Positions 6,623 to 50,089 are shown, numbered from the stretch's first letter. The stretch: DNA of 64,000 nt from Candidatus Nomurabacteria bacterium (GCA_020631995.1 JACKGJ010000001.1:161753-225752); one strand, 5' to 3'. A program made the numbers and translations. Notes: a model not told the origin generated them from the sequence alone.

Positions 6623-6627
6623 TGGTT

Positions 6628-8483: not shown

Positions 8484-8492
8484 CAAATCAAA

Positions 8493-8529: not shown

Positions 8530-8543
8530 TTTTAAATTAGTGA

Positions 8544-8699
8544 AATTGGATGCAGTTTCCTACTTAGATTCTGGGTGAGGATTTTTGGATGCAGTTTCGT
8601 CAGCTGGAAGGAGCTTTGCGACGGAGACGTAGGCGAACTACGGCGACCAAGCAAAGCGGCTGAAGCTGGCGGAAATGCGCCAAAAAGACCAGCCAGAAT
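8544..8699 (+). repeat. Structured intergenic hairpin element R2 (subfamily I) with an extra 5' half-copy
   Basis: GGATGCAGTT at 8587 pairs with AAATGCGCC at 8673. Outer stem is ATTCTGG 8568 / CCAGAAT 8693, abutting the secY stop. A second GGATGCAGTT lies at 8548. Confidence 0.75.
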
Positions 8700-31254: not shown

Positions 31255-31290
31255 AGAAAAGCCCGGAAGCAAATGCTTCCGGACTTTTCT
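31255..31290. terminator. Bidirectional terminator (rpmB / ComEC-MBL gene)
   Basis: AGAAAAGCCCGGAAGC aaat GCTTCCGGACTTTTCT. Confidence 0.75.
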
Positions 31291-32168
31291 TATTTAAGTG
31301 TGACGTTCTCTCCATCCGACCAAAAGACAACCTTCCCATTTTCTGCTGTTCTTAAGGTTGTCACTCCAAAGTTAAAAAGTGCGTCAGTTACTTCTATATG
31401 TGGATGACCATATGAATTATCAGCTCCGGCTGATATGACAGCGTACTCAGGGTCCACCTCCACCAAGAAAAGCTCTGAGGTCGACGTATGTGAACCATGA
31501 TGCCCTGCTTTCAAAACATCGCTCTCTAATTTTTCTCCTTCAACCAAAACTAAATATTCTTCAATCGACTTTGGTGAGTCTCCAGTCAACATAAAGGCCG
31601 TATCACCATAGACCAATCGAGCAACAATAGAGGACGTGTTACTTTCGAGCTCACTGGCATCAATGTCTGGGAACAGAATCTCTAGATATACGTTGTGACC
31701 TAGGTCATATCGCTGTCCACGTCGCGCAAAGTGCACCTCTCCTCCCTCCTCTTCTATCTTACGTACAACTAATTTCCACACTCCAGTTTCACTTTCGTTT
31801 TCAGTACGTATGACGTTACTTACATCGAAACGGTCAAGTACCACAGCTAAACCTCCTATATGATCTGCGTCTGGATGAGTCACTAACACATAATCAATGT
31901 CCCTGTCGGAAAAACTCATTACCTTACTCAGTTGGCGCAGAACACTACTATCTCGTCCGGAATCAATTAGCATTTGCTTGCCACCTGGTGACTGGATGAA
32001 GATGGCGTCGCCTTGCCCTACGTCGAGAAATACTACACAAAGTACATTTGAGTCACATACAGGTGGCCCTATGGGCTTTAAAGAGATCTCAGGCCACCAA
32101 GCGAGCACGAGAGCTGTTACCATCACCGCAAGCACCATCAGTCTATTCTTAATTACTCTTTCATCCAT
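31290..32168 (-). CDS. ComEC/Rec2 C-terminal-type MBL-fold hydrolase domain protein (stand-alone)
   Basis: VFLDVGQGDAIFIQSPGG..VLVTHPDADHIGG..GHHGS with an N-terminal membrane anchor. Confidence 0.75.
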   Translation of the reverse strand: MDERVIKNRLMVLAVMVTALVLAWWPEISLKPIGPPVCDSNVLCVVFLDVGQGDAIFIQSPGGKQMLIDSGRDSSVLRQLSKVMSFSDRDIDYVLVTHPDADHIGGLAVVLDRFDVSNVIRTENESETGVWKLVVRKIEEEGGEVHFARRGQRYDLGHNVYLEILFPDIDASELESNTSSIVARLVYGDTAFMLTGDSPKSIEEYLVLVEGEKLESDVLKAGHHGSHTSTSELFLVEVDPEYAVISAGADNSYGHPHIEVTDALFNFGVTTLRTAENGKVVFWSDGENVTLK

Positions 32169-32182: not shown

Positions 32183-32749
32183 ATGCCTATGACTTACGAA
32201 CCTAAAAAATTTAATATCCCTGAGCTCACTGGTATTTCGAAGCAATCAATTGATGAGCACATTAAACTCTACGAGGGCTATGTGAAACACGTAAACCATA
32301 TCCGCGGAGAAATGGATAACGTTAAAGATGATTATGCTCGCTCTGAGATGACTAGGCGACTAGGGTTTGAATTTGGTGGAATGCGTAACCACGAATACTA
32401 CTTCGAGCAGTTTGAAATTGGGCCAAGCTCTCTTCCCGACGGAAAACTTAAGTCTTTGATTGAGGCACAGTGGGGCTCTCTAGAGAAGTTTATCGAACAC
32501 TTTAAAAAGCTTGCTAGTACCCGCGGGGTTGGTTGGACAATGCTGTATATCGACCGCCAAAATGGTGGACTCATTACTGCCTGGGTGGATGAACAGCACT
32601 TTGGCCAACTAGCAGACCTTGATATCGTACTAGGACTCGATATGTGGGAGCACTCATATATGCTCGACTACCCACCAAGTGAAAAACTTAAATATGTTGA
32701 TGCATTCTTCCAAAATCTAAACTGGGAAACAGTTGCTAAAAGAGTCTAA
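32183..32749 (+). CDS. Fe/Mn-family superoxide dismutase-like protein
   Basis: The DMWEHSYMLDY motif matches the DxWEHAYY signature; an N-terminal His-containing helix (DEHIKLYEGYVKHVNH) is present. Confidence 0.75.
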   Translation: MPMTYEPKKFNIPELTGISKQSIDEHIKLYEGYVKHVNHIRGEMDNVKDDYARSEMTRRLGFEFGGMRNHEYYFEQFEIGPSSLPDGKLKSLIEAQWGSLEKFIEHFKKLASTRGVGWTMLYIDRQNGGLITAWVDEQHFGQLADLDIVLGLDMWEHSYMLDYPPSEKLKYVDAFFQNLNWETVAKRV

Positions 32750-34257
32750 ATCTCTTTTATAGTCCAACCCTTTAACTCATCAACTTCCCGCACACTCCAC
32801 CACAAGACGAGTGCTATTAGTGCGTAACCCAGTGGCACAAACCAAAACGAAAAGGCTGGAACTGTAAATGATGCAAATGGCAACTCGCCGAACCACTCGG
32901 CTATTACTATTATGTACGTGAGGGACAGATGTGTAACAAAGGCTAATGGTGTCGCTAGAGACAACGAAACGAAGGCCACCATACCAGTCAAAAATGTTAG
33001 CAACATTGAAACAGCCACCATCGGCAAAACCAAAACATTTACAATAACTGCCACCACTGAAAATTCGCCTATTTGATAAAGGAGAAGAGGTAATACAAAA
33101 AGCTGTGTGGCTAATGTAGCTACCAAGAATTCACGTGCCCCTAAAGGCGACGGCATTGTCCGAAGTCGTTCCTGTAAGTCTGGGGCTACTAATATGAGTC
33201 CGAGTGTGGCAATAAAGGAAAGCTGGAAGCCCACGTCAAAGGCCAGCGAGTACGGATTCCAAATAAGCATAATAAATCCAGCTAACATTAGTCCTCGTAG
33301 TACGAGATAGATACGTCCTGTTAACCCCACAATGAGAAGGAGTGAGGCCATCAAACAAGCGCGCACAACCGTTGCACTCAAACCAACCATAAGTGCGAAT
33401 ATGACTATGCCTACCAATCCAAAACCAACACTAAAACGTCTGCCAAATACCTGCCCTAATACATAAAGGATGAAGGTCACTACAATCATCACATTGTATC
33501 CAGAGAGAACAACTATATGAATGATGCCTGTCTTCCTAAAAGTAGTTTCTAGATCTTCTCCTAGGGCACGCTTCACTCCGAGAAGTAACCCTTCGCTTAG
33601 TCCTACCTGAGGCTCAGGCATCAGCAGTTCGAGCTTCTGCATAAAGGTATGCTTAAGGTCAAGAATTTTACTGATAAAGTCATACGCACCGCCTTCAGAT
33701 AGTCTCTCCACTTCTGCTCTGCGAATCGTATAACCCACACCTTTCGCTAAGAGGTACCCGGGATAGTTAAACGTACGACCCAAGTCAGTTTCGAACGCTT
33801 CAGGTTTTTCTAGCACTCCCTCCACTAATACTCTGTCTCCGTAATTCCATTCTTCGCCAGGATAAGCAAGTGCTAAAATAAGTCCATAATCAGTTTTTAT
33901 ATAAAGATGAATGGAGTTAGCACGAGCCTCCGGCTCGCGCCATATCACTCCCTCAAGCACCACTTCACTCCCAAGCATTTCTTCCAACTTTGACTCTGTG
34001 CTATTTAAAATAGCAAAATCCATTCGAAGCGCCCCGAGTGCGAAAGACATTATTGTTAAGGAGATAAGAAGTAGGCCAGGCAGAGGACGAGAACCTTGGA
34101 CTCTCGCTCCCTGCCCAACCAAACCAACCACTACCGCCAGCAATACTAGAAGTGCAATCTCAGACAAAGAAAACCGCGCGAATGAACGCGCGAAAATTCC
34201 AAGGGCAAAAGCAATGATTGCGGAATAAAATAAAATTCCACCATCATTTAGCCTCAT
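32746..34257 (-). CDS. comEC: ComEC/Rec2 competence channel protein (membrane part, no MBL domain)
   Basis: 503-aa polytopic protein with an N-terminal OB-like region then many TM helices (GIIHIVVLSGYNV competence-domain motif). Confidence 0.75.
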   Translation of the reverse strand: MRLNDGGILFYSAIIAFALGIFARSFARFSLSEIALLVLLAVVVGLVGQGARVQGSRPLPGLLLISLTIMSFALGALRMDFAILNSTESKLEEMLGSEVVLEGVIWREPEARANSIHLYIKTDYGLILALAYPGEEWNYGDRVLVEGVLEKPEAFETDLGRTFNYPGYLLAKGVGYTIRRAEVERLSEGGAYDFISKILDLKHTFMQKLELLMPEPQVGLSEGLLLGVKRALGEDLETTFRKTGIIHIVVLSGYNVMIVVTFILYVLGQVFGRRFSVGFGLVGIVIFALMVGLSATVVRACLMASLLLIVGLTGRIYLVLRGLMLAGFIMLIWNPYSLAFDVGFQLSFIATLGLILVAPDLQERLRTMPSPLGAREFLVATLATQLFVLPLLLYQIGEFSVVAVIVNVLVLPMVAVSMLLTFLTGMVAFVSLSLATPLAFVTHLSLTYIIVIAEWFGELPFASFTVPAFSFWFVPLGYALIALVLWWSVREVDELKGWTIKEI

Positions 34258-34260: not shown

Positions 34261-34683
34261 CTACTTTTTGGCTTTCTCGTCCAAAGCTTCATTCACCAAG
34301 CGGTCTGCCTCTTTGTTTTCTTCCCGCCTTACGTGGGAAAGTGAGAGTTTGGAAAAATGCGCTCGTAGGTCCTGTATCTCTAAAAAGATACTTCTAAGAC
34401 CTGGATTTTTAACCTTATACTCTCCAGCCAACTGCTTAACTACTAGTTCACTATCAAGCTTCCAATCAATTTCTAAATCTGTAGTCTCTTTACCGAAACG
34501 AGCTTTAAGGACCTGAAGTCCCCGCAAAACAGCAGTGTATTCCGCTATGTTATTAGTGCTTTCTCCAATATATTCTGCAACTTCTTCAAGAATTTCGTTC
34601 TTTTCAGTCTCAATAACGACACCAATGGCCGCTGGTCCAGGGTTGCCTCTGGCTCCCCCGTCGGAATGTACAATCAGTTTCAT
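34261..34683 (-). CDS. rnhA: Ribonuclease HI
   Basis: HSDGGARGNPGPAAIG..NNIAEYTAV..DSELVVKQ..NKEADRL catalytic DEDD pattern. Confidence 0.85.
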   Translation of the reverse strand: MKLIVHSDGGARGNPGPAAIGVVIETEKNEILEEVAEYIGESTNNIAEYTAVLRGLQVLKARFGKETTDLEIDWKLDSELVVKQLAGEYKVKNPGLRSIFLEIQDLRAHFSKLSLSHVRREENKEADRLVNEALDEKAKK

Positions 34684-34690: not shown

Positions 34691-34987
34691 TTATGATAAC
34701 ACTTTGAGGGCGTCTTCTCGAAACGCTTCAGTCTCCTCTTCCAAAATCACTTTAAACATCGGAAACGCATCTGAAAGAATTAAATGCAAATCATCTTTGT
34801 CTGCATAGGCCTCGAGCATATGAGCAAAGTGTTCACCTGTTGATTCATCACTTTCTGTAATAAATCTCAACACTGAACTTTCTAAAATCAAACCACCAAG
34901 ATCCGCCAAAAATACCATCTTCTCGTCTTCAGACATTTCCGAGAAGTGAAACAGGTCCGCTATGTTTTTTTGGATTTCTGTTGTCAT
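34691..34987 (-). CDS. Small acidic hypothetical protein
   Basis: 98-aa ORF, tightly spaced within the operon, no recognisable motif. Confidence 0.45.
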   Translation of the reverse strand: MTTEIQKNIADLFHFSEMSEDEKMVFLADLGGLILESSVLRFITESDESTGEHFAHMLEAYADKDDLHLILSDAFPMFKVILEEETEAFREDALKVLS

Positions 34988-34999: not shown

Positions 35000-37618
35000 T
35001 TAAGCGACTCTTTGACCACTAGTTACTCGTGACAAATATTGCGTTAAAGTCTCATTATCATTAGCAGAGACCATCTGATTCTGCTTCTGAAGTGTTTCTC
35101 CCCACTTAGTCACACCCTCAGCACTTAAATTGCGATTAGCCAGCTCTTCCTCTAGATTTGGGCTACTGACCATCTCTTTAAACTGACCAACGGTCATCTG
35201 ATCTGGATTAAGGGCCTCCCAAGTTCCTGTGATATTTGGATTAGTATTTAAGAACAAACGATCAAATAAACCAACCTTAGGATTTTCGACTGAACTTACG
35301 TAACTCTGTACAGCTTCACTGTTATTAGCGGCTGCTTCAGGAATGAAGTTAGCATCACGCACCGGCATATCACCTGGTTGTGGTAATTCCCCACTAAAAG
35401 GGGTGGCCTCCGGCACAGAATTGTCATTGGCAGTTGGGGGCAAATCATCTGTCATTTTGTCAGAATTCTGTAACCAATCAGACACAGTCATGTTTGGATC
35501 AAGCTCTCCTCCTCTACCAGCCAAACTTTGGTACATGTCCCTAAAATCATTTTTGTCGATACCCAATTCTTCCAAACGAGCATCTACTTGGGGATTATTT
35601 TGTGAAATATCAGATGCAATCTTCTCCACCTCCATTATCGTCAGATTATTAAAATCTTTTACCTGACTATATGATTCCATTTGTGGAGTTGAATCCAAGC
35701 TAACTGGCCCACTTTCAGAAAACTGTTCGGTGGTAGGGGCAGGTCCGGAAGGAGTTTCTGACACCTCTGGTGCTGTAATTAAAGATTCACTTGAGCCTGA
35801 AGATTCTTGGTTCATTAGTTCTACTAACTTCTCGTCTAACATTGAAACATTGATGGTTTCGCCTGGATGAATCAGGTGAATGTTGCCACCACTTTTAACC
35901 GCACCCACTTCTTTAGCAAATTCTGGATTTTGGTCGCAATAATCAAAAAGTTTATCAAGCCAGTATCTTCTATCGGCTAAAGACATGTCAGTTACAATTT
36001 CTGACTTTCCGCCGACTGGATTATTGTCTGGACCTTTGCCCTCCATAATATTCCAGGCATTGTCTCCACGTTCTACTGTATGTGTTACAGCTGGCTCAGC
36101 AAAAACATCCTCCTCGTGTTCATAATTTTCATGAGGCTCATGGTCGGGTCCTATATGTTCTTCAGATAAACTTTCTCCACCACTGTCCCTAGGAATAGCT
36201 TCTTCACCCCCACTAGCATGTGGTTTCATCTCAGCGTGATTTGTGGGGTCAGGAGTAGTCTCACTAGGGGCAGTCACTGCATCTTGATTAAAAGACTCCT
36301 TCACATCTGGATACATCTTTTCCGCCACACTTGCGTCACCCATTTGTTGCAACGACTCAGTCTGAGAGACTGCATCGGTTGGAGTATTTGTAACATCAGG
36401 GATTGTACTCTCTGCCCCTAGTCCACCCACAAACCCAGCGGTTGTCATACCAGCACTTGCTCCTGCAATTTTTGAAGCGGTTTTTGATAAATTTGTTCTT
36501 GTCTCCACATCATTCGTTAAATAATCCATTTTCCCATCTTCATCCAAAAAAGATTTCTCGAAAAAATCACTGCCTAGATTAGAAGTGGCATTTATGAGTT
36601 TTTTTCGTCCAGAGGCAATCCAGGTTTTATCTAATATTTTATATGTTCCAATACCTACACCTAGTCCAGCCGCCATACCTGCTATCACCACAGGGAAAGC
36701 GCCACCAGATAGCACAGTTGCCCCTAACGCAATTCCACTCATGGTCTTATACTTATTTCTCTGCAAGACTGCTAGTGATCGACCAACGTTGCTCTCATCC
36801 CAAACCTTATCAATTGTTGTCCCTTGAAGTTCTAGGCGCTTTTTATGAACACCAGTAATTAAGTGTTGAGCTAGCATGCTCTGATAACGCTTATCTACCG
36901 CCTCAGGACCACCGTATTCCTTTGATGATTGAGTAATGGCAGAAGTTTTAATCCTAGGACTGATACTTCCCTTGCGAACATTCAATAAACTCTTTGCCGC
37001 TGAATGATATTCTCGCCTAGCTGTTGTTGATGCGTTTTGAAGAGCCTTCAATTCTCCACTTAATTTAGGTTGAAGTCCAAAAGTTCTACGGACACCTCTC
37101 AACAGCGCTGATTGGGACTCAATGTGTTTTTGATACTTATCATTATATTCTGCCTCCAACTTATGTGCCCGATCCCTTGATTCTTTCCAGCTATCATAAA
37201 CCATCTCATATGCAGCCAAATTTTCTGGTGACGGGTCTCTTTGTGCCTGTCTTCTCATTGCAAGTTCTTTTGCTGAAATAGCGTTCTCGATTACGTTTTT
37301 TTTGTCGTCTTTAGATAAACTGTTTTCTGTTTGAAGTGGCATTTCTTCTGCCTGTTTTGCCAACACTGCATTTCTAGCAGCCCCATACACGACCTTCTGT
37401 GAAGCAATGGCAGGTACGTCACCCTCCTTCACTTTTTCTACCGCCTTATTTAATTTTGAAACGTCATTATCTTTAGAATCGACAGCAAACGCTGGTGTAT
37501 TATCTGCCTTATCTTCTTTAACTATGATCTTTGGGGCATCTCCACTCAAAAACTCCTGATGAGGTTGCTCTGGCACACCTTCAAAATCAAATTTAGGTTC
37601 TTTCCTTTCCTCTAGCAT
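35000..37618 (-). CDS. Large (872 aa) hypothetical membrane protein with central Gly/Ala-rich TM segments and a LysM-like C-terminal region
   Basis: TM stretch GIALGATVLSGGAFPVVIAGMAAGLGVGIGTY and a LysM-like HTVERGDNAWNI..IHPGETINV. The long uninterrupted ORF lies directly downstream of the ATPase gene. Confidence 0.6.
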   Translation of the reverse strand: MLEERKEPKFDFEGVPEQPHQEFLSGDAPKIIVKEDKADNTPAFAVDSKDNDVSKLNKAVEKVKEGDVPAIASQKVVYGAARNAVLAKQAEEMPLQTENSLSKDDKKNVIENAISAKELAMRRQAQRDPSPENLAAYEMVYDSWKESRDRAHKLEAEYNDKYQKHIESQSALLRGVRRTFGLQPKLSGELKALQNASTTARREYHSAAKSLLNVRKGSISPRIKTSAITQSSKEYGGPEAVDKRYQSMLAQHLITGVHKKRLELQGTTIDKVWDESNVGRSLAVLQRNKYKTMSGIALGATVLSGGAFPVVIAGMAAGLGVGIGTYKILDKTWIASGRKKLINATSNLGSDFFEKSFLDEDGKMDYLTNDVETRTNLSKTASKIAGASAGMTTAGFVGGLGAESTIPDVTNTPTDAVSQTESLQQMGDASVAEKMYPDVKESFNQDAVTAPSETTPDPTNHAEMKPHASGGEEAIPRDSGGESLSEEHIGPDHEPHENYEHEEDVFAEPAVTHTVERGDNAWNIMEGKGPDNNPVGGKSEIVTDMSLADRRYWLDKLFDYCDQNPEFAKEVGAVKSGGNIHLIHPGETINVSMLDEKLVELMNQESSGSSESLITAPEVSETPSGPAPTTEQFSESGPVSLDSTPQMESYSQVKDFNNLTIMEVEKIASDISQNNPQVDARLEELGIDKNDFRDMYQSLAGRGGELDPNMTVSDWLQNSDKMTDDLPPTANDNSVPEATPFSGELPQPGDMPVRDANFIPEAAANNSEAVQSYVSSVENPKVGLFDRLFLNTNPNITGTWEALNPDQMTVGQFKEMVSSPNLEEELANRNLSAEGVTKWGETLQKQNQMVSANDNETLTQYLSRVTSGQRVA

Positions 37619-37654
37619 ATGGTAATTAACATAATACCATCCAGCCTCGTCTCG

Positions 37655-40387
37655 TTAGAGGTATCGTGCGGATATCTCCATTTCCACCTGGCGACGAGGA
37701 CGGGCGTGGCGCTGATATGACTGCTCCACTATATTCTTAACTCTTTCTGGATCTACCGCCTCTGGAGGAAGAGTCTTTATATTGAAAGGCTTGACCGGAC
37801 TGCCGTTAGCTAGGATACGTACGAAAGCTTGGCGATTCTCTACATTCATTAAGTCCCGAGAGGTAAACACTGGAGCGAATTGTGACTCTAAAAATTCTGC
37901 ATCGTCGGGACCGACTCGGAAAGAAGCCATAGAACCGACGTTTCCAAAGACAGCATCACGAATTCCTTCGTCCAGCTGTGCAATAAACTGGTGTGCAACT
38001 GTGAGACCAAGCTTGTACTTACGAGCTTCTGACAAAATGGCGGAAATGGAGTCGGTAGAGATATTCTGGAACTCATCCATATGCAGGAAGAACGGAGAAT
38101 AACCCTTGGTGATATCGTCAGCACGAGAAAGCGCCGCCATCAGTATCTTGCCCACAATAATCATACCAATTAGGTTGGCATTGATTTCACCTAAGCGACC
38201 CTTAGAGAGGTTGACCAACAAAATTTTCTTTTCATCCATCAAACGACGGAAGTTAAATGACGAAGTTTGTTGCCCAATTATCGGTCTAATGAAATCGTTG
38301 GCGGTGAATACATCAAATTTAGAGGTGATGTACGGCACGATATTTTCAAGAGACGCTTCTCCACCGGCCTTGGTCGCAATATCATTCCAAAACTGCGCTA
38401 CTACTGGGTTCTTGGTCTTCGAAAGTTTCATCTTTCGATATGACTCATCGGCAAACACTCGTGAAATATCAAGCAGAGTAGAACCACTAGCTGGGTCTTC
38501 GAGCACGAGCAAAGTAGCATTTCTAAAGTATTGTTCAAACATCGGACCCATACTTTCCGGCACAGCACCGTAAAGTTTCTGGAATATTGAAAAGAGTTCA
38601 TTAACCACAAAAGTCTTCTGCTCTGGATGCGACTCATCAAACTCGAGCATATTGAGTCCAAGCACCATATCGGTCCGAGCTGGATCAAAGTAAATGACGT
38701 CATTCTCCCTCTCTGGAGGTACAGCACCAAGCACATCAGCAATATCAGTGCCGTGCGGATCAATCATACATACCCCATGACCCTCTTTGATGTCTTGAAT
38801 GAGCATATTCTTCATCAGGGTCGTCTTTCCAGTACCAGTTTGACCAATGATATAGAAATGGCGCATTCTGTCTTCAAGAGAAATGCGAACCTTAGTCTCA
38901 GTACCACGAAAATCATTAACACCAAGCAAAGTTCCCTCGCTTGGTAAACCACCTGGTGCTGGTGCTGCGGTAGTTTGGTTTTGACGAAGTTGCGGAGAAT
39001 CTTTGGAAGCTGTAAAAGCAGGTAAATGCATTACGGTAGTCATCTCCTCAATACTCCAAATCATTCTCTCTCGCTCATTCCACATACGAAGAGAGAAGTT
39101 TTTTAAGAGTTCAGCCGCTCCACTCCCTACCTGGTCCTTCCAGGTGATACGATTGCCCCGACCGTTTTCGAATTGACCAAAGCCTGACTTAATATCTCCC
39201 AGTATCGCCTTTGCTTCTGCTTCACTCGCGGCTGACGTGACGACCCGTAGCGAAACCGACACCATTGAACTCTTTAGCTTTTTACCAAACTCTTCTAAAA
39301 GAGTTTGGTCGATGGCACCTGCTCGTTCGGCTTTTTTAGCCTTCTCCTTTTCTTCGGCTTCTTTGTTTTTAAAGGCGCCAAATATTTCCTTCACTGCCTT
39401 CGAGGCAATTCCTGCTTCAGTTTTAGCTAGAGAGGCATCCAAACTTTCACCCTTTCTAATGTCTTCGAGTACTCCCTCACCTTTCCTTAAGTAGTCGTCA
39501 CGACGCGGACCAACCACAAACTGCACTGCCGCACCTTCACCCTGCTCATTTATTTTTGAAAAACTATTGAGAATGACGCCGAGTGGATCTACATCAAAAT
39601 CTTGGTATGAAGAAAGTGGATATAGCCAATGTCTCTCCAACTGAGCATAACTAGCAACAGACACTCCTGATTCATTGAAAATGTTGTAGTCGTCTTGGCA
39701 CTCTGAGACAGTGGCGTTTGGGAAAATACCAAGTATTTGTTTCTCAAGCAGTCTTGATTGGTCTCTCGCAATGCCGATATAGAAAACAAAGTCATTGCTA
39801 CCATTTTCATTTGCTATCTCGAAGGTGAAATTGGTACCAGTATTATTTGCTACATTGGCCAACATACCTGAGTAAAATTGCTCCATTCCGGAAACAAGCT
39901 CTTGAAGAGACTTTTCTTTATTTTCCTCACCTGATTCTGGTAGGCGAATCTCATACAGTGACATATGGAGGGGCTTCCATAGAGGATCCTTCTCTGAAAA
40001 ATTCGCTAGTGGTAAGTCGGAAGCGATATAGCGTACAAGGGCACGATGTAGGTCGTCTATTAAGTGAGGGTTTCCCGTCTTCTCAGCGACCAACATTACA
40101 TTCTTGACCCCCTTCAAAGGCAAGAGTGCCAGAAGCGCCTCTATCTGGTCATCGTGAGTCTCCTCCTTGAGTCCCATCGCTGTCATATTCACAAGCCGGT
40201 CTGGCATTTTGCGATCTTCAGGCAAGGCGGCCTGAGTCGGCATCACCCGATAAGTCTCCACGGCCTCCGCTGCTGCATCTTCTTTCGGCATTCCATCACG
40301 CTCGCTCTGCAAGCGCTTCACTTCTTGACGCAACAGTGCAATCTCATCTTCAGGCGCCGGAAATTTTCTTTCTGGTAAAGATTCCAT
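37655..40387 (-). CDS. VirD4/TraG-VirB4-like (FtsK-HerA superfamily) P-loop ATPase, 910 aa, no obvious TM anchor
   Basis: Walker A IIGQTGTGKTTL, IDPHG, Walker B FFLHMDEFQN, then EARKYKLGLTVAHQFIAQL as in T4SS coupling proteins. The 500-aa N-terminal domain is unassigned. Confidence 0.7.
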   Translation of the reverse strand: MESLPERKFPAPEDEIALLRQEVKRLQSERDGMPKEDAAAEAVETYRVMPTQAALPEDRKMPDRLVNMTAMGLKEETHDDQIEALLALLPLKGVKNVMLVAEKTGNPHLIDDLHRALVRYIASDLPLANFSEKDPLWKPLHMSLYEIRLPESGEENKEKSLQELVSGMEQFYSGMLANVANNTGTNFTFEIANENGSNDFVFYIGIARDQSRLLEKQILGIFPNATVSECQDDYNIFNESGVSVASYAQLERHWLYPLSSYQDFDVDPLGVILNSFSKINEQGEGAAVQFVVGPRRDDYLRKGEGVLEDIRKGESLDASLAKTEAGIASKAVKEIFGAFKNKEAEEKEKAKKAERAGAIDQTLLEEFGKKLKSSMVSVSLRVVTSAASEAEAKAILGDIKSGFGQFENGRGNRITWKDQVGSGAAELLKNFSLRMWNERERMIWSIEEMTTVMHLPAFTASKDSPQLRQNQTTAAPAPGGLPSEGTLLGVNDFRGTETKVRISLEDRMRHFYIIGQTGTGKTTLMKNMLIQDIKEGHGVCMIDPHGTDIADVLGAVPPERENDVIYFDPARTDMVLGLNMLEFDESHPEQKTFVVNELFSIFQKLYGAVPESMGPMFEQYFRNATLLVLEDPASGSTLLDISRVFADESYRKMKLSKTKNPVVAQFWNDIATKAGGEASLENIVPYITSKFDVFTANDFIRPIIGQQTSSFNFRRLMDEKKILLVNLSKGRLGEINANLIGMIIVGKILMAALSRADDITKGYSPFFLHMDEFQNISTDSISAILSEARKYKLGLTVAHQFIAQLDEGIRDAVFGNVGSMASFRVGPDDAEFLESQFAPVFTSRDLMNVENRQAFVRILANGSPVKPFNIKTLPPEAVDPERVKNIVEQSYQRHARPRRQVEMEISARYL

Positions 40388-40404: not shown

Positions 40405-42078
40405 TCAGATAGTTTCGACTATGTCGACAATACGCAATCTCGTCTGCCAACGATTCATAAAAAATGATTCTTCTACGTGCGCCAGAAGATTTAAAGGCTC
40501 ATTAATAGCTGGAGTAACTTGATATTGTTCCGGCTTTGCAAAAAAGGCGATGGCTTCAATTTTGTTGTTTAGCGTTTCAAAAATTAGCTTCAAGTGCTCC
40601 TTGGTTTTACCAAACTGTTCAATCTGCAACGGCTTTACGTTTTTAAAAGCGAACAATGGCTTCTTATTTCCAGCTCCGTATGGTGCAACTGACCGCAATG
40701 TAGATAATAAATCGCGGGTTATATCCTCAAGCGATAAGACCGCATCAATACTAACTTCTTCATTTGCCAAAGCTTTGTCCCCTAAAGAAATGTACGAATC
40801 GTTTAGTGCTTGTCCCAGATGAAAAACCGAGTCCTCTTTGACTGCGAAACCGCCTGAAGCGTGGTGTCCACCGTGTTCCAAGAAATGTTGTTCGGCCCCT
40901 TCCATAATTTTCACCACACTAATCGAAGAACCACTGCGACACGAGCCCTTTATTACACCATTACCATCCCGTCCCCACAGAAACACTGGCCGGTTATGCT
41001 CCTCTGCCAGCCCATTAGCACATAGTCCAACAAGTGCCGGTCGCCACTCCGGGTTTCCCATCACGATAATATCTGGCAAATCAATTATTTCGGACATTCG
41101 TCTCCTTAATTCCTTAGTCATTGAGGCAACCATTCCTTTTCTTTCATTATTTAACTTTTCAAGATGTGTAGCACGAGCTCCGGCACTCCCTTCTTCTTTA
41201 TCAGATAACATCAAGAAGGCATCTTCCGGTGAGTCCATCCGTGAGGCGGCATTAATGCGTGGTGCGATAGTGAAACCGATATCGTCTTCGGTTAAATATC
41301 TTTGGTCGGCTCTGGCTTTGCGAAGCAAATGTTGAAGTCCTGGGCGACGAGACTTGCGCAGGACTTGAAGGCCAAAGTGAGCAAAGACCCGGTTTTCACC
41401 AATAAGTGGCACCATATCACCAATGGTCGCAATACCCACCATATCAAGCCACCATTTTTCATGGCCAGGCTTAACTGCAAAATCTCCTCTAGTGAGCGTG
41501 GCTTCAGCAAGCTTAAAAGCCACAGCTGCTCCACAAATATGTGGGAATGGGTAACTATCTCCAACACGTGGATTCACTATCGCCACAGCTATAGGTAACC
41601 TATCCTTCGGTTCATGGTGGTCCGTGACAATTAAATCCACACCAAGCGAAGTTGCCTTATCAGCCGCCTCCAAATCTGAAGTTCCACAATCTATAGTAAT
41701 GATTAGCTGAACTCCCTCATTGGCTAGTTTTTCGACTGCCATTTCACTTAGACCGAAACCTTCAAAGTGACGATGAGGAATATAGTTAATGAAGTTGTCG
41801 TAGCCAATCGCTTTAAAGAAATCGTGAAGTATCACGGCGCCTGGGATACCGTCACAATCGTAATCAGAATAAATCGCTATCTTTTCTTGATTTTTTATAG
41901 CAAGAAGCAGGCGCTCTACTGCCACTTCCATATCATTAAGTAGAAACGGATCATGACGTCCTTTTTCGTAGTCTGGATTTAAGAAAGATTCTGTGTCTTC
42001 CACCGAAACTCCACGCACTTTAAGCAAATGGTTCAAAAGATTTTCCTCCTTTCGCTCAATCAAAGTGTACTTGGACAT
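40405..42078 (-). CDS. recJ: Single-stranded-DNA-specific exonuclease RecJ
   Basis: DHH motifs (YSDYDCDGI, TIDCGT, VTDHHEP); ATG at 42078 (MSKYTLIERK). Confidence 0.9.
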   Translation of the reverse strand: MSKYTLIERKEENLLNHLLKVRGVSVEDTESFLNPDYEKGRHDPFLLNDMEVAVERLLLAIKNQEKIAIYSDYDCDGIPGAVILHDFFKAIGYDNFINYIPHRHFEGFGLSEMAVEKLANEGVQLIITIDCGTSDLEAADKATSLGVDLIVTDHHEPKDRLPIAVAIVNPRVGDSYPFPHICGAAVAFKLAEATLTRGDFAVKPGHEKWWLDMVGIATIGDMVPLIGENRVFAHFGLQVLRKSRRPGLQHLLRKARADQRYLTEDDIGFTIAPRINAASRMDSPEDAFLMLSDKEEGSAGARATHLEKLNNERKGMVASMTKELRRRMSEIIDLPDIIVMGNPEWRPALVGLCANGLAEEHNRPVFLWGRDGNGVIKGSCRSGSSISVVKIMEGAEQHFLEHGGHHASGGFAVKEDSVFHLGQALNDSYISLGDKALANEEVSIDAVLSLEDITRDLLSTLRSVAPYGAGNKKPLFAFKNVKPLQIEQFGKTKEHLKLIFETLNNKIEAIAFFAKPEQYQVTPAINEPLNLLAHVEESFFMNRWQTRLRIVDIVETI

Positions 42079-42106
42079 AGTCAATATGGTGACTATAATA
42101 ACATTT
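42079..42106. promoter_or_regulatory. 28-bp divergent promoter region with overlapping -10 boxes (recJ / HIT gene)
   Basis: TATAAT on the + strand (42094-42099) ends 7 nt before the HIT ATG. TATAGT on the - strand (complement of 42092-42097) lies 13 nt before the recJ ATG. Confidence 0.5.
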
Positions 42107-42508
42107 ATGACTGATTCTATTTTTTCACAGATTATTGCCCGCGAAATCCCCTCACAATTCGTATATGAAGACGAGGTTTGTGTGGTCATTATGGATAAGT
42201 TCCCGAGTACAAAGGGACAGACTTTAGTTATTCCTAAAAAAGGAGTGGACTATGTCTTTGACCTAGACGACTCTACCTATTCACACATCTTCAGTGTAGC
42301 TAAGAAGATTGCCTTAGCTTCTGATAAAGCACTCCATCCCAAGCGCACCTGCCTGGCCGTCGAAGGTTTTGAAGTTCCTCATACCCATATCAAGATTTAT
42401 CCTGTTTATGACACAAGTCGAGGCCTTGGTCCGTTTCTTTCCAGTGGAGAAATGGCTGATGACACAGAACTAGCCAGTCTCGCAGAACAGATTAAAAAAT
42501 GTCTTTAA
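42107..42508 (+). CDS. HIT-family (histidine triad) nucleotide hydrolase
   Basis: IFSQIIAREIPSQFVYEDE.. and HTHIKIYP histidine triad. Confidence 0.85.
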   Translation: MTDSIFSQIIAREIPSQFVYEDEVCVVIMDKFPSTKGQTLVIPKKGVDYVFDLDDSTYSHIFSVAKKIALASDKALHPKRTCLAVEGFEVPHTHIKIYPVYDTSRGLGPFLSSGEMADDTELASLAEQIKKCL

Positions 42509-42539
42509 AAAATCCGCGACTGATTGTCGCGGATTTTTT
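42507..42539. terminator. Bidirectional terminator (HIT / pgk)
   Basis: AAAAAATCCGCGAC tgatt GTCGCGGATTTTTT. Confidence 0.8.
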
Positions 42540-42542
42540 ATT

Positions 42543-44596: not shown

Positions 44597-44742
44597 CTCA
44601 CAACGCGTTTCCTGACTCAGGTCAGGACCGGAGGGAACAAGAAACTATTCTTGTTCTGCCCACCTAACGCTTGCTCGTTTCACTCACAACGCGTTTCCTG
44701 ACTCAGGTCAGGACCGGAGGGAACAAGAAACTATTCTTGTTC
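44597..44742. repeat. Tandem duplication (two 60-bp near-identical units, 86-bp period) carrying nested palindromes
   Basis: Positions 44597-44656 and 44683-44742 are identical. Each holds AACGCGTT, CCTGAC tcag GTCAGG and a GAACAAGAA acta TTCTTGTTC hairpin. Confidence 0.85.
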
Positions 44743-46218
44743 CCTCCACTCGATGAACTGATAATTATCAGAAGTCTTTGGGGTCAAAGGTGGTGGGTCG
44801 ATAGCTAGGTCACGGTCATAGTAGTCGTAGCGATACTCAAAGCCATTGCAGTACACACCTCCGGAGCATACCCATTTAGTACCAACGCGACCATTCGAGA
44901 CCACTGTTCCATTAGTGGTCAGTGAATTGCGGTACATATAGTCACTCATCGAATTTTGAATGCGCACGTAATCAGGATTAGAATCAGCAGAGTTACTATT
45001 ACTAACATAGTAGTATGGCCGATGGAACTTTCCTTTCTGCGCCAAAAAAATACCGTTTATCGACATATTATCTGGTACATCTAGACCAATATTGATGTTT
45101 TCTTCGGCGATTAGTAGGAGGCCTGAGTCTTCATTAGCATAAGTGAGGTTACCAACAATAACTACTCTTGGATCTGTCGTGGAGTCAGGTGCGGCAGCGG
45201 CAACTGTCACTCGTCCATTTATCACGCCCTCCACCCACACATTGTCCTCAAAGAAAATAACACTACAAGAAGAAGGTATAGAGTACGTCCCCACTGTCGT
45301 TGCACTGTTCAAAAAGTTTTTACTGTGACCCCAAGCATTACCTTTGGCCTTACTCGACTTTGCCTTTTTTAGTGTATATGTACCATTTGAGTTAAATACA
45401 ACATAATAACCAGCCTCACCGGAAGGTCCATAGTATTGACCACCTGAATTGGTAGCACGATCTTTTATGTCAGAAAGGTCTACCGTTACTCCTGTGAAAC
45501 TAACTGGTGGTACAGACCATTGCCACAAATCAGAACCATCCCCGTCACCAAACACTCCATTGACACTGGTCCAATTACTAGCAAATTGTGGACTTGCAGT
45601 ACAAATATCAAGGTAGTAGCACCATGAGCTCGTTTGTCCGCTAGTCACTTTAGAGTTATTGAGTCCATCCATACGCACAAAGCCATTGGAATGATATGGT
45701 CCATAGATAATACGATCAGGACCGGCCCAGACATTGGCATTAACGATGTGTGAGAACTCTGCTACGTTGGGCCTAGCATAACGAGCATAGACTATTCTTT
45801 CTATATTTGGTTCTTTGGTTGTATAACCTGTCGAAGTAATATCAATAGAAGTCACCGCTCCACACGCTAGGTTGCCATCCACCTCCAAAGAATACTCCCC
45901 AATTACATCGCCCTCTGGGTCACTAAACGGAACTACATAAGGGCCAGCTTCTCCAGTACCGTTTTGGATATCATCAGGATGGTGAGCTAGAAACCATTTG
46001 TAGTAGTTAAGCCCAGCCTCTGCAATTTGAAGGGCTTGCTCACTATTTAATTTGGCATTAGATATTTTCGAGCCAGTAATAGTAAAACCCATAAAGGCTG
46101 TAAAAATAGTGAAGAACACGGCCCCAAACACTAAGAGTAATACCACTAAGTAGCCCCTAGAAAGATTATGGTTCGCTACTTCGTTGTGTTGATCTGAACT
46201 TTTAAATTTAAATGTCAT
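44731..46218 (-). CDS. PilX-like / pilus-associated protein with an N-terminal hydrophobic anchor (495 aa)
   Basis: N-terminus ..SRGYLVVLLLVFGAVFF is pilin-like but lacks Glu5. Sits in the operon with the prepilin-like genes. Confidence 0.55.
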   Translation of the reverse strand: MTFKFKSSDQHNEVANHNLSRGYLVVLLLVFGAVFFTIFTAFMGFTITGSKISNAKLNSEQALQIAEAGLNYYKWFLAHHPDDIQNGTGEAGPYVVPFSDPEGDVIGEYSLEVDGNLACGAVTSIDITSTGYTTKEPNIERIVYARYARPNVAEFSHIVNANVWAGPDRIIYGPYHSNGFVRMDGLNNSKVTSGQTSSWCYYLDICTASPQFASNWTSVNGVFGDGDGSDLWQWSVPPVSFTGVTVDLSDIKDRATNSGGQYYGPSGEAGYYVVFNSNGTYTLKKAKSSKAKGNAWGHSKNFLNSATTVGTYSIPSSCSVIFFEDNVWVEGVINGRVTVAAAAPDSTTDPRVVIVGNLTYANEDSGLLLIAEENINIGLDVPDNMSINGIFLAQKGKFHRPYYYVSNSNSADSNPDYVRIQNSMSDYMYRNSLTTNGTVVSNGRVGTKWVCSGGVYCNGFEYRYDYYDRDLAIDPPPLTPKTSDNYQFIEWREQE

Positions 46219-46831
46219 ATTCTTTTAAGTTTCGAAGTGATGCACTAGAGCGTAAATGATATTTGCCCGGCTCTCTAATAGGATCAACATTTACCACCAT
46301 TGCCACATCAATATGCCTCACTTCACTCACACCAGTCCCTGACAACTCTACTCCCTGATTGTTATAGTAGGTAAACATTATCACTCCCTCAAGGTCATTA
46401 TGTACATATTCAGAGATTGTTTCCGTACGACTTGGTTCACTAGCATAGACAGCCGGAATTCCGCTGGACTCATATATGTATTTAAATAGAGTTTGATCAA
46501 CTATCTCGTAGCGCACCAGCTCTACACTATTATCTCTATCAATGTCACTATAAAACTCCACACTAGAAGTAGCGCGATTCACTAATGGAAAAGCACCATT
46601 GTCGGAGTAGGTCATTTCACGCAGGTCACGAACTAAAAGTTCAATACCCTTTCGAGCACTGTCTACCTGATAAGCCTGAGCTATGGTGTAGGCATTGTAG
46701 CGATAAAAAGAGGATATCACCGTCATAATGGCGATAGACAATATACTGAAGAGGGCGAGGACTACTACAGTTTCCACTAGAGTCATCCCTCTTGATTGTG
46801 TGTATTTGTTATTTAAAAAAGTAAGTCGCAT
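46208..46831 (-). CDS. Prepilin-type N-terminal cleavage/methylation domain protein (minor pilin or pseudopilin-like)
   Basis: Leader MRLTFLNNKYTQSRG then MTLVETVVVLALFSI (G/xTLxE signature). Confidence 0.75.
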   Translation of the reverse strand: MRLTFLNNKYTQSRGMTLVETVVVLALFSILSIAIMTVISSFYRYNAYTIAQAYQVDSARKGIELLVRDLREMTYSDNGAFPLVNRATSSVEFYSDIDRDNSVELVRYEIVDQTLFKYIYESSGIPAVYASEPSRTETISEYVHNDLEGVIMFTYYNNQGVELSGTGVSEVRHIDVAMVVNVDPIREPGKYHLRSSASLRNLKEYDI

Positions 46832-46836
46832 AAATA

Positions 46837-48576
46837 TTAACTACTCGGACTTAGGGTAATGACTGTCATTACATTTCCATTTACTGTGATGGTACCAGAG
46901 TAAGAAGTGTAACCGGCTTGTGAAACATCAACAGTGAAACTATCCAGAAGCGGTAAGTCACCAAAGAAAGCTTGACCATAAGCAGAAGCAGACACTGTCT
47001 CACTATAACCTGTGCCTGAAAGCTGAACTGTTGCCCCACTTAACGGCAAGCCATTTTGGTCGGTCACTGTAATATGCAGCGTACGAGTTGTATGTGGAAC
47101 CAACTCAAAGGCCAAAATAGTATTTGCACCTGGGGCAATGGTATAAGGCAAAACTCCACTCACTTCTTTAATATCGTAACCTTCTGTCGCACCGTCGACG
47201 GTAATTGTGTAAACATCCCACTCTAATGATAACGGGCTAAGACCGTCCGCATCAGTAATAGTGGAATCTTGATATTTCAGAACCCCACTACCAATGGTCT
47301 TGGTACCAGTCAAATCAAAGGTAAGGTCCGCAATCGGTGGTTCAGATTCAACATAACCAAGTCGCCAACTTTCTATTAAAGGTGTAGCAAGCGGGTCAGA
47401 ACTATCCAAATTGGCGCGGAGGGCAAGGCGTGGGAAAGTACTGCTTGCCAAATGAGAAATGTCGACAGAGCCAGACGTGAAGCCAACGGAGTTTCCTGGT
47501 AACAGCGTGTCATCTACCAAAGTATAAACACCGCCGGACTCTTGATAGAGACTCACACTTGCTGAGGTGCTGGTCGAAGTTGTAACACTCCACTCAAACG
47601 TATCCCAGGAAGAGAATTCGGCAGGAGCAGTGGTGGTCGAGTAGGCATATCCAGATGAATAATAGCTACCCTCTATTGAAGTCAGACTGACACTTCCACC
47701 TGACACCTCTGTATTATTCATCTGTGCTAATAAATCTGAACTGGTGAATTCATCAATAAATTCTTGTACTACCGGTTCTCCAAAGGCTCTTAAAGTAAGG
47801 TCTGCCAATTTATCAATACTAAAATACATTGTAGTGATAGTGCTAGAGGCTACTGCCACATGTGGCGGACTAGGATCAGGATTCTCTACTGTCACGTCGT
47901 AAGTTTGGTCGGTGGAATAACCACTTTTCGTAACAGTAATCTGGTAACCGCCACCCGGTGGCACCCCTGGCACAATCACACGTCCCGATACATTAGTACT
48001 TACCGTCACGTCCACAGTACTGGTGGCCAAGGCATCGTTGTAGATTCTGACGGAAGCACCATCTACTGCTTCGACCACAGAGTCAAATACATTTACTATG
48101 AGAGTACCTCCTCCGGAAGAAGTCTCCATACCTTTTGGTGATATGTCAGTAACAAGGGAGAGATTTTTTTCTTCTCCTCTAATTTCCCAAGTGTATTCAA
48201 CCTTTATCCGCTTACTATCTTCAAGTATGCCGTTCTCGTCACTACCTTCAAGGCCGTCCTCAGGCCTATCGACATACAGCACTAACACACGCTCGGTATA
48301 ATCAATGCCATTTAAAGTGCTAGTGCTAGTTTGCGGTATTGCTCCCGACGGCACTCCGTCTACCGTCCCAATGGCGTCATAGTTCAAAGAGCGGATGTAT
48401 TCCATTTTAGACAGTGCCAAGGAACGAGCACCAGTTTCCGCCTTACTGTGTCCAATAAGTTCAACCATCAACTTCACACCACTCAGTAGTCCACCAAAAA
48501 ACAAAAGAAGGATTGCGGACGCAATCACCACTTCAACAAGTGAGAAACCTCCAGAACGAGTTCTACCTATTACCAT
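46837..48576 (-). CDS. Large prepilin-type protein (579 aa) with repeated beta-sandwich-like segments
   Basis: MVIGRTRSGG then FSLVEVVIASAILLLF. Recurrent V..V.D..G.P..GA.V motifs resemble carboxypeptidase-regulatory-like domains. Confidence 0.7.
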   Translation of the reverse strand: MVIGRTRSGGFSLVEVVIASAILLLFFGGLLSGVKLMVELIGHSKAETGARSLALSKMEYIRSLNYDAIGTVDGVPSGAIPQTSTSTLNGIDYTERVLVLYVDRPEDGLEGSDENGILEDSKRIKVEYTWEIRGEEKNLSLVTDISPKGMETSSGGGTLIVNVFDSVVEAVDGASVRIYNDALATSTVDVTVSTNVSGRVIVPGVPPGGGYQITVTKSGYSTDQTYDVTVENPDPSPPHVAVASSTITTMYFSIDKLADLTLRAFGEPVVQEFIDEFTSSDLLAQMNNTEVSGGSVSLTSIEGSYYSSGYAYSTTTAPAEFSSWDTFEWSVTTSTSTSASVSLYQESGGVYTLVDDTLLPGNSVGFTSGSVDISHLASSTFPRLALRANLDSSDPLATPLIESWRLGYVESEPPIADLTFDLTGTKTIGSGVLKYQDSTITDADGLSPLSLEWDVYTITVDGATEGYDIKEVSGVLPYTIAPGANTILAFELVPHTTRTLHITVTDQNGLPLSGATVQLSGTGYSETVSASAYGQAFFGDLPLLDSFTVDVSQAGYTSYSGTITVNGNVMTVITLSPSS

Positions 48577-48673
48577 TCTATATATAGTACAACGTCGGCG
48601 TCGTTATTTTGGCTACACTCACTTGATAAAGATTAGAGTCATACACTTTTCTTTCACTTCCAACTTCAATTTT

Positions 48674-48861
48674 CTAAAACTTTTAAAAGTGGATGCACCA
48701 CACGGGCACTTCCGTTTTCATAGTCGAGCAAGCTCTCCTTGAAAACTAGGTCGCAGTTGTGCTGGTTGGAGGAATTTTGGCGACAGAGCCTTAGAACAAA
48801 CTAAGGTGACCAAGACAAAATTATGAAACCAGTGCAAATGCGCCACTTTTAAAAGTTTTAG
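48674..48861 (+). repeat. Composite structured hairpin element R9 (subfamily I with an internal insertion), 3' of pilC
   Basis: A 17-bp perfect outer stem (48674-48690 / 48845-48861) overlaps the pilC stop. GGATGCA is at 48691, GGTCGCAGTT at 48749 and AAATGCGCC at 48836. The core closely matches R5 by eye. Confidence 0.8.
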
Positions 48862-50081: not shown

Positions 50082-50089
50082 ATTAAATA

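Follow-up and report, generated by a model that had tools for sequence, protein, structure and literature searches.

We analyzed a 64,000-nucleotide stretch of Candidatus Nomurabacteria bacterium (GCA_020631995.1 JACKGJ010000001.1:161753-225752), hereafter the window, and all coordinates are given as window positions. The genes studied encode a soluble 910-amino-acid ATPase, a fast-evolving 872-amino-acid membrane protein (partner 1), which is 100% identical to locus H6788_01225, and an acidic 98-amino-acid protein (partner 2), which is a probable, divergent member of family DUF5663 (Table 1). An earlier note on this DNA had described the first two as a two-gene module related to type IV secretion, and the coordinates and minus-strand orientation of these two open reading frames (ORFs) were exact, but the module contains a third gene, the 98-amino-acid ORF. 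As the note had stated, no other type IV secretion system (T4SS) components were found among the window ORFs scanned.

The C-terminal half of the ATPase carries the Walker A, IDPHG (residues 542-546), Walker B and EARKY (residues 787-791) pattern of coupling proteins that had been pointed out earlier; these motifs could be read in the translation, with EARKY...HQ spanning residues 787-800 and including Q800. When 42 homologues were aligned, the catalytic motifs were invariant or nearly so, and mean column identity over the whole length of the protein was 56%. Within Walker A, no variation is seen at G515, Q516, T517, G518, G520 or K521 and almost none at T519, and T522 is not among the conserved columns listed; L768, D771, E772, F773, Q774, N775, E787, A788, R789, K790, Y791, H799 and Q800 are invariant as well. 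Searches of Pfam gave matches above cut-off within residues 495-821 for DUF87/HerA (the best, 36.2 bits), T4SS-DNA_transf (26.9 bits against a cut-off of 20.1, residues 509-807) and TrwB_AAD_bind (24.8 against 20.5), and a weak match for TraG-D_C; CagE_TrbE_VirB and AAA_10 did not match. NCBIfam models for TraD and the CD1115 VirD4-like protein matched locally, far below their equivalog cut-offs, and VirB4 models matched very weakly (TIGR00929, 14.2 bits against a cut-off of 643). Using a profile of the whole protein to search PDB sequences returned TrwB (E = 0.001) and DotL (E = 0.035), and no VirB4. The earlier description of the protein as VirD4/VirB4-like is borne out, with the ATPase falling in the VirD4/VirB4 branch of the FtsK-HerA ATPases. 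Membership in an anti-phage defence system was considered and rejected, since the PADLOC models matched at the level of the motor domain only (mad8, E 4e-12; HerA, weakly) and did not match the partners.

The N-terminal region had been regarded as a 500-amino-acid unassigned domain. Its ∼490 residues have no match in the Pfam release that we searched, which omits PF26449 (DUF8128); this family is, however, precomputed on the N-terminal half of nearly all listed homologues, including one that is 97% identical (P0001), and by proxy of these matches the window ATPase is very likely a member, so the domain can no longer be called unassigned. An AlphaFold2 model of the full ATPase (mean predicted local distance difference test, pLDDT, 81.3) was compared with the PDB by Foldseek, and TrwK, the VirB4 of R388, ranked first, with an alignment that was collinear over ∼870 columns (E 7e-13) and whose global TM score was low because of domain placement. 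HerA followed (4d2i, E 7e-11; also 9x1m), then TrwB, with a target-normalised TM score of 0.64 over ∼416 columns, and then Cagbeta. Residues 590-718, between Walker A and Walker B, form an all-helical stretch in the model. When residues 133-482 were modelled alone (pLDDT 80.7; predicted TM score, pTM, 0.80), the top 11 Foldseek matches were all TrwK/VirB4 of R388 (best E 1.4e-5, probability 1.0, query-normalised TM score 0.45-0.48), and the next group, resembling chlorite dismutase, had probabilities of 0.54 or less. The fold assignment of this domain is based on the collinear full-length alignment together with the specificity of the Foldseek match list. A link between DUF8128 and VirB4 at the level of sequence was rejected, since a profile of the N-domain found no match to any solved structure in the PDB, VirB4 included. 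As modelled, then, the ATPase has the architecture of VirB4 and an N-domain with a VirB4-like fold, joined to a motor that in sequence lies closer to coupling proteins.

A hydropathy scan revealed no credible membrane helix in the ATPase, and no hydrophobic segment qualified within residues 1-500, in agreement with the previous statement that an N-terminal membrane anchor is lacking. In the C-terminal half, a single hydrophobic 19-mer (residues 735-753) exceeds the threshold; the model places it as a buried helix in the core of the ATPase fold, and the modelled domains are soluble.

More than 120 full-length homologues with 48-97% identity were found, and those with a named source were all labelled Patescibacteria, save one with a Bacillota label, which we take to be mis-binned. 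With one genome taken per GTDB species, at least 596 species representatives carry the ATPase at 42-70% identity (596 of 600 candidate stretches were confirmed). The best 80 of these were assigned to Paceibacteria or the Parcubacteria group or were unclassified, apart from ∼20 labelled Saccharibacteria and four labelled Bdellovibrionales or Gammaproteobacteria, and these labels, which come from automated metagenome bins, are taken to be unreliable. Judged from sequence comparison, the ATPase is a core, vertically conserved chromosomal gene and not a sporadic island.

Variants of the family were also seen. Gene order was compared in 82 related loci from other species, in which ORFs were called and searched with the window proteins by jackhmmer (loci and contigs are cited below by L numbers, and single homologues by P numbers). 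A distant subfamily encodes the first ∼130 residues of the ATPase as a separate ORF of 125-156 amino acids just upstream of the ATPase gene (L068, L071, L074, L076, L077, L079, L081, L082, L084-L086, L088, L089, L091, and L092), and the same subfamily has a coiled-coil protein, termed X (439-698 amino acids, with a C-terminal membrane helix), which often lies between the DUF5663 gene and the ORF for the N-terminal fragment. IMG/VR contigs L096-L101 encode proteins of 411-582 amino acids that consist of the motor only, are 32-43% identical to residues ∼486-910, and are without the DUF8128 domain. One locus, L005 (ENA ERZ25039512 contig_80216), has a diversity-generating retroelement at 5642-7986, directly upstream of the DUF8128 ATPase, with bAvd at 6571-6936 on the minus strand and a reverse transcriptase at 6982-7986; its template repeat occupies 6438-6562 and its variable repeat 5986-6110. 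The variable repeat is at the C-terminus of a 162-amino-acid ORF, and all 15 of its mismatches fall at template adenines; the target of this retroelement is the 162-amino-acid protein, and the ATPase was rejected as a target since the variable region is in that neighboring ORF.

Relatives outside Patescibacteria are found in phages and on plasmids, and are ∼22-24% identical to the Patescibacteria ATPase. The PHROGs family phrog_5156 matched over the full length (E 3e-79), and 44 Bacillus phage records matched by tblastn. Hidden Markov model (HMM) searches with the whole protein and with the N-domain, respectively, detected phage G gp156 (825 amino acids; E 1e-58 and 6e-18), SPO1 gp27.4 (906 amino acids; 2e-36 and 5e-14), and a 720-amino-acid protein of the B. 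cereus siphophage vB_BceS-M2 (4e-30 and 1e-6). Homologues of 913 and 883 amino acids that have no transmembrane segment were found on the Bacillaceae plasmids NZ_OX419568.1 and NZ_CP012476.1, with whole-protein E-values of 2e-45 and 7e-53 and N-domain E-values of 2e-16 and 1e-11. The N-terminal extension is missing from the Bacillus plasmid and phage homologues. On the plasmids, the ATPase gene is followed directly by a Replic_Relax (MOB_C-like) relaxase gene, and then by TcpC, TcpE and an AAA_10 ATPase; in a Gram-positive transfer cluster this is the place of the coupling protein. SPO1 gp27.4 likewise precedes gp27.3, a Replic_Relax relaxase. Phage G, a jumbo phage (L093, JN638751.1 87772-93336), has a T4SS-like set of genes in the order gp153 (a TrbL_4 VirB6-like protein), gp154, gp155 (a VirB4-like TraG P-loop/AAA_10 protein) and gp156, followed by an HNH endonuclease. 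The SPO1 gp27.4 homologue of phage 0305phi8-36, orf201, was previously proposed to be a coupling ATPase without an anchor; it is part of a "DNA translocation operon" that also encodes a MobC-like relaxase and that the phage does not require in the laboratory (Pathria et al., 2012; PMC3357382).

The 872-amino-acid partner had no Pfam or NCBIfam match. The earlier note had ascribed to it central Gly/Ala-rich membrane helices and long low-complexity linkers. The linkers are present, being long, acidic and rich in Pro, Ser and Thr, and the stretch at residues 295-326, which could be a membrane helix or hairpin, scored above threshold and has equivalents in L001, L003, P0123 and P0124, but the second stretch (residues 384-402), which was read by eye and may cross the membrane, did not reach the threshold; its equivalent in P0123 scores 1.64. 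Residues 130-290 are presumed to be a cytoplasmic coiled coil.

The earlier note had also proposed a LysM-like region. Pfam LysM (PF01476) did not match the excised segment even at E ≤ 10, but when a seven-sequence profile of residues ∼500-615 was compared with the PDB, five of the six best matches were LysM proteins: LytE (E = 8.7e-4), SafA (0.036), and a LysM protein, an N-acetylmuramidase fusion and YaaH with E-values of 0.23-0.71. The alignments that were printed, those with LytE, SafA and 6ve2, each match the YxVxxGDTxWxI half and the IYpGxxIxl half on either side of the ∼35-residue insert, and the segment is conserved in L001, L010, L056, L079, and P0123/P0124. The LysM-like assignment is thus marginally supported. 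The segment is presumed to be extracellular and to bind peptidoglycan, which would place the C-terminal half of the protein outside the membrane.

Between the window and its closest relative, L001, the 872-amino-acid protein is 39% identical and the ATPase 66%. A word-indexed search with the large protein returned only four homologues, and when 1.84 billion proteins were searched exhaustively with HMMER the yield was 100 cluster representatives, mostly of 650-1600 amino acids, that match profile positions ∼125-480; a library of these 100 representatives recognised only four of the related loci. When jackhmmer was run by segment, residues 130-290 and ∼505-610 emerged as the conserved pieces, with the helical segment reaching L001, L056 and L010. 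A single family comprising all of the large neighbors was rejected, because the pairwise BLAST network is patchy and those of L006 and L007 show no similarity and no transmembrane segment. Partner 1 is therefore defined by position more than by sequence, and is an extremely variable rather than a conserved component.

Jackhmmer detected homologues of the 98-amino-acid protein in 13 of the 82 loci; in every case the adjacent gene encodes a protein of 640-1370 amino acids (fragmented in L086), and the ATPase is no more than two genes away. The ATPase and its large membrane neighbor, paired in the earlier note, are accordingly syntenic in a subset of genomes. The module is downstream of the ATPase in the window, L001, L003, L010, L019, L039, L051, L056 and L065, upstream on the same strand in L074, L079 and L086, and divergent in L037. 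Pfam DUF5663 (PF18908) does not match the window protein itself; nine of 13 aligned small proteins match this family (best E 2.6e-8), and jackhmmer ties the window protein to 12 homologues. A profile search with the small-protein family retrieved 114 proteins, most of which carry PF18908. All 13 small proteins are acidic (isoelectric points of 4.05-4.9), and the family appears to be helical. One of the 13 gave a weak match to IcmW (E 0.008), and since it was the only one, an IcmW-like adaptor was dropped save as an analogy.

The proximity of DUF5663 to the ATPase was observed in 16% of loci, compared with ∼1% expected by our own estimate for a random gene of ∼100 codons lying within three genes in a genome of ∼800 genes. 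Reciprocal look-up in other long contigs placed a DUF8128 ATPase two to five genes downstream of DUF5663 in four of five; the exception was L090, where DUF5663 is followed by a 1318-amino-acid protein and the ATPase is absent from the range. Loci with DUF5663 are spread over four or more distinct regions of the ATPase neighbor-joining tree, including its deepest split, which fits an old linkage that has repeatedly been lost or relocated. Neither DUF8128 nor DUF5663 was mentioned in the literature searched.

Although recJ, rnhA (encoding RNase HI), a split comEC and a type IV pilus block were all confirmed by family matches as neighbors in the window, this arrangement is not general. Genes for recJ, rnhA, comEC, the metallo-beta-lactamase (MBL) ORF and pgk were adjacent to the ATPase in only one of the 82 loci, L001; PilB was found in two and PilC in one, all 6-11 genes away from the ATPase, and the pilin-like genes of the window in none. 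The commonest context was instead secY-adk-map upstream and ndk, a membrane protein of ∼130 amino acids and a beta-CASP RNase downstream, with Map in 27 loci (at position -1 in 11) and Ndk in 25 (at position +1 in 18). The window has the same block (secY-adk-adk-map-ndk-128aa-betaCASP RNase) at 3109-9970 but with no ATPase in it, implying that the module was relocated in this lineage. The block includes two tandem adenylate-kinase-like genes, at 6628-7227 and 7224-7796. The linkage to recJ, rnhA, comEC and the pilus was consequently rejected as a conserved association. Partners of the kinds seen in phages and plasmids (relaxase, actin-like, VirB4-like and TrbL-like) were also rejected, being absent from the 82 Patescibacteria loci, and no neighbors of the virB3, virB6, virB8 or NurA-like kinds were seen in the window or in these loci.

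Within the window, recJ, the ATPase gene, the genes for the 872- and 98-amino-acid proteins, rnhA and comEC are co-directional, with intergenic gaps of 3-36 nucleotides and no strong internal terminator. The hairpin between pgk and recJ has a perfect 15-bp stem with A- and T-run flanks and looks like a bidirectional intrinsic terminator, and the next strong minus-strand terminator is past the MBL gene, at 31292-31253. These flanking terminators and narrow gaps suggest that the genes form one transcription unit here, with recJ probably co-transcribed with the ATPase in this lineage only. The GC content of the region (0.42-0.45) is the same as that of its flanks, with no compositional anomaly.

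Several other features of the window were recorded. The split comEC with its intervening superoxide dismutase gene has the same layout in L001, which adds a TfoX_N gene past the MBL ORF. Among the pilus genes, the pilin-like protein encoded at 46837-48576 has an N-terminal methylation motif and C-terminal CarboxypepD_reg domains, and beyond it (44731-46831) are a second N_methyl protein and a 495-amino-acid protein without a family match. A 401-amino-acid protein with PKD and PG_binding_1 domains is encoded at 24038-25243, between the EF-Tu and EF-G genes. DUF5667 proteins are encoded in the window (62615-63874) and in L003 (528-1553), upstream of the ATPase locus in Parcubacteria C7867-004, where the DUF5667 gene adjoins that of a sigma-70 factor. 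Like DUF8128 and DUF5663, DUF5667 has no known function and is found repeatedly in these Patescibacteria contigs.

Table 1. Positions of the module, its domains and motifs, and neighboring features in the window
Feature	Position	Strand	Basis or remark
ATPase gene (910 amino acids; DUF8128 plus motor resembling type IV coupling proteins)	37655-40387	-	ORF and translation
N-terminal helical extension (residues 1-132)	39992-40387	-	helices at 12-122 in the model
DUF8128 domain (residues 133-482), alpha/beta, predicted fold like the VirB4 N-terminal domain	38942-39991	-	PF26449 on homologues; model
C-terminal P-loop motor (residues 483-910) with a modelled helical stretch between its Walker motifs; like type IV coupling proteins	37655-38941	-	Pfam, PDB search, Foldseek
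Walker A, GQTGTGKT	38822-38845	-	residues 515-522
Walker B, FFLHMDE	38072-38092	-	residues 766-772; followed by FQN and EARKY...HQ
Partner 1 gene (872 amino acids; fast-evolving membrane protein)	35000-37618	-	ORF and translation
Charged helical segment (residues 130-290)	36749-37231	-	conserved in distant partners
Gly/Ala-rich hydrophobic stretch (residues 295-326), putative membrane helix or hairpin	36641-36736	-	Kyte-Doolittle score 1.82
Second, weaker Gly/Ala-rich stretch (residues 384-402)	36413-36469	-	read by eye; below the 1.5 threshold
LysM-like segment (residues ∼510-600) with ∼35-residue insert	35819-36091	-	seven-sequence profile against PDB
Partner 2 gene (98 amino acids; acidic, probable divergent DUF5663 member)	34691-34987	-	jackhmmer homologues
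recJ	40405-42189	-	NCBIfam TIGR00644, E 1e-141; outside the conserved module
rnhA (RNase HI)	34261-34683	-	Pfam, NCBIfam; downstream neighbor in this lineage only
comEC membrane part (Competence and DUF4131)	32746-34257	-	Pfam, NCBIfam; downstream neighbor in this lineage only
Fe/Mn superoxide dismutase gene	32183-32749	+	between the ComEC membrane ORF and the MBL ORF
MBL ORF, separate ComEC part	31290-32168	-	family match
PilB/PilC and pilin-like genes	44731-51838		profile matches
Terminator hairpin	42506-42540		between pgk and recJ; perfect 15-bp stem, A- and T-run flanks

The explanation that we favor, with middling confidence, is that the ATPase is a member of the type IV coupling protein (T4CP) family that has no anchor of its own, carries a VirB4-type N-domain, is tethered by a partner, and probably feeds a channel encoded elsewhere. 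In its favor are the domain assignments, the breadth and conservation of the family, the linkage to DUF5663 and a large variable protein, the plasmid and phage relatives in the position of a coupling protein, the published reports on coupling-protein homologues cited here, and the features of the two partners. The ATPase would form a ring translocase, like TrwB, VirB4 and HerA, and, without transmembrane helices, would depend on its VirB4-like N-domain and its N-terminal extension to stay at the membrane. The tether in this lineage would be the cytoplasmic coiled-coil part of the 872-amino-acid protein, which would span the membrane via its Gly/Ala-rich segment, while its LysM-like region would anchor the complex to peptidoglycan. 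By analogy with TraM, CagZ and IcmS/W, the acidic DUF5663 protein may serve as an adaptor or regulator of the ATPase. The motor would then pass a macromolecule on to a separately encoded channel, for which the best candidate is the VirB4-based T4SS located near dnaA in most Patescibacteria; DNA would be the likelier substrate because of the plasmid and phage relatives, with protein a less likely one.

Several observations weigh against this explanation. Support for the LysM-like segment is marginal, the large proteins adjacent to DUF5663 are linked only by patchy pairwise BLAST similarity, and the large neighbors in L006 and L007 have no hydrophobic segment. About five in six loci have neither DUF5663 nor a large partner beside the ATPase, which is there in the secY-adk-map/ndk context, so the tether is not universal in cis. 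Homologues of relaxase, VirB4, VirB6/TrbL or actin-like partners were found in none of the 82 Patescibacteria loci, and as a result cooperation with a T4SS is suggested only by distant relatives (∼23% identity). The likeness of DUF8128 to the VirB4 N-domain is at the level of fold (TM score 0.45-0.48) and has no sequence signal. Finally, a T4CP homologue of S. epibionticum, which may be of the DUF8128 type, is reported to be non-essential whereas the T4SS is essential (PMC12102498).

An autonomous envelope translocon specific to Patescibacteria, made of the ATPase, the LysM-like protein and DUF5663 (with protein X in other lineages) and independent of the VirB4-based T4SS, is somewhat unlikely. 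Such a machine would drive DNA or protein through the membrane, or power the assembly or exposure of a hypervariable surface structure for host contact. It would account for the recurrent companions of the ATPase (DUF5663, large variable coiled-coil or membrane proteins, and the small ORF for the N-terminal fragment) and for the finding that T4SS channel genes are never adjacent; the lower identity of the partner relative to the ATPase is as in surface proteins under diversifying selection, and the LysM-like segment would imply an envelope location. However, the module includes no polytopic channel protein, and with one scored hydrophobic stretch and one read by eye a conduit is unlikely; moreover, the module is missing in cis from most loci, and the plasmid and phage G relatives are beside canonical T4SS parts. 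A more elaborate proposal is that Paceibacteria possess a self-contained envelope machine for DNA or protein exchange or host attachment, in which a motor derived from a coupling protein has shed its relaxase and VirB channel and the ATPase is an intermediate between VirB4 and VirD4, and this we consider unlikely. The idea that the protein is a decayed integrated conjugative element or prophage remnant without host function is scarcely credible. Its relatives are on plasmids and in phages, with a strong match to phrog_5156 and motor-only relatives on IMG/VR contigs, but full-length orthologues with intact motifs are carried by the hundreds of species representatives described above, the neighbors are housekeeping genes, and this possibility was rejected because there is no GC anomaly and no integrase or relaxase nearby.

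Two further alternatives draw on the gene neighborhood. The earlier note had taken the surroundings to suggest an apparatus for DNA uptake or cell-to-cell transfer. On such a reading, the ATPase would be a motor for uptake or transformation that acts alongside ComEC and the type IV pilus, with RecJ and RNase HI, to draw DNA in and process it. The tight, co-directional gene string from recJ to comEC, seen in the window and L001, and the pilus block 4-11 kb upstream are compatible with this idea; motors of the coupling-protein type, such as TrwB, do bind DNA, and comEC is needed for natural transformation in Southlakia (PMC10633639). Nevertheless, the DNA-uptake reading is without comparative support, since the recJ/rnhA/comEC adjacency is confined to L001, the few PilB and PilC genes are distant, and the commonest context is secY-adk-map/ndk; in addition, ComEA, ComF and DprA are not in the module, and the relatives beside relaxases point to DNA processing of the export type, so that this role seems quite improbable. 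It is very improbable that the ATPase is a HerA-like translocase acting with RecJ in DNA repair or end resection: DUF87/HerA has the best Pfam score, HerA is among the Foldseek matches and recJ is directly upstream, but there is no NurA-like partner, the N-domain matches VirB4 and not the HAS-barrel of HerA, the recJ adjacency is not conserved, the sequence is nearer to TraD, VirD4 and TrwB, and homologues are beside relaxases and Tcp genes.

Much of the bacterial diversity that has not been cultured belongs to Patescibacteria, which live attached to other cells, a lifestyle for which pili and T4SSs are essential. The class of protein described here is already known; what appears to be undescribed is the composite architecture of this ATPase clade, its near-ubiquity and chromosomal "housekeeping" status in Paceibacteria, and its repeated association with DUF5663 and with a LysM-like membrane protein that is hypervariable. 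A recent survey counted 5,713 VirD4-type homologues in 2,918 Patescibacteria genomes, of which 148 were near virB4, and left exaptation of these homologues possible (Quinonero-Coronel et al., 2025; PMC12102498). The role of these proteins, ∼two per genome, was left open, and one of them can now be given an identity; the motor-only proteins may explain the second "T4CP" copy. DUF8128 and DUF5663, both Pfam domains of unknown function, become testable hypotheses. The T4SS of Southlakia is essential and has no recognisable coupling or relaxase proteins, and comEC in this organism, while required for natural transformation, is dispensable for growth (Wang et al., 2023; PMC10633639); our results suggest how a T4SS cluster of this kind might still rely on a coupling protein whose gene lies at another site. 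They also urge caution, since lineage-specific gene order is a poor guide to function in DNA uptake, and the nearness to uptake genes here is a local accident.

Compared with known systems, the ATPase shares with T4CPs the order of motifs (Walker A, the IDPHG-type strand, Walker B, and EARKY...Q), and TrwB is its best sequence match in the PDB; the modelled helical stretch between Walker A and B may correspond to the all-alpha domain that T4CPs have inserted in the nucleotide-binding domain. It differs in having a soluble region of ∼480 amino acids with a predicted VirB4-like fold in place of the N-terminal transmembrane domain, and in not being beside a relaxase or virB4 gene in the window and the 82 loci. 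With VirB4 (TrwK of R388; 7o42, 8rtd) it shares a two-domain soluble architecture, at the level of fold only, but it does not match the VirB4 sequence models and does not have virB3, virB6 or virB8 as neighbors, and a distinct, bona fide virB4 gene is found near dnaA in Patescibacteria (PMC12102498). HerA has a motor of the same FtsK-HerA superfamily (Pfam DUF87; Foldseek E ∼1e-10), but the ATPase lacks a NurA partner, its N-domain confidently matches VirB4 only, and its sequence is nearer to T4CPs. Unlike the competence machinery, it has no conserved association with comEC or pilus genes. DUF5663 resembles the small partners in the TraM-TraD, CagZ-Cagbeta and IcmS/IcmW-DotL pairs in being small (∼100 amino acids), acidic and linked to an ATPase, with no significant homology to them. 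Full-length homology, including DUF8128, is shared with the proposed coupling ATPases of Bacillus phages and Bacillaceae plasmids, which likewise have no transmembrane segment (as tested on the two plasmid proteins). These relatives lack the first ∼130 residues, are borne on mobile elements, and lie beside a relaxase and/or Tcp/VirB-type transfer genes, whereas the Patescibacteria genes are chromosomal, are without a relaxase, and are partnered with DUF5663 and a large LysM-like protein.

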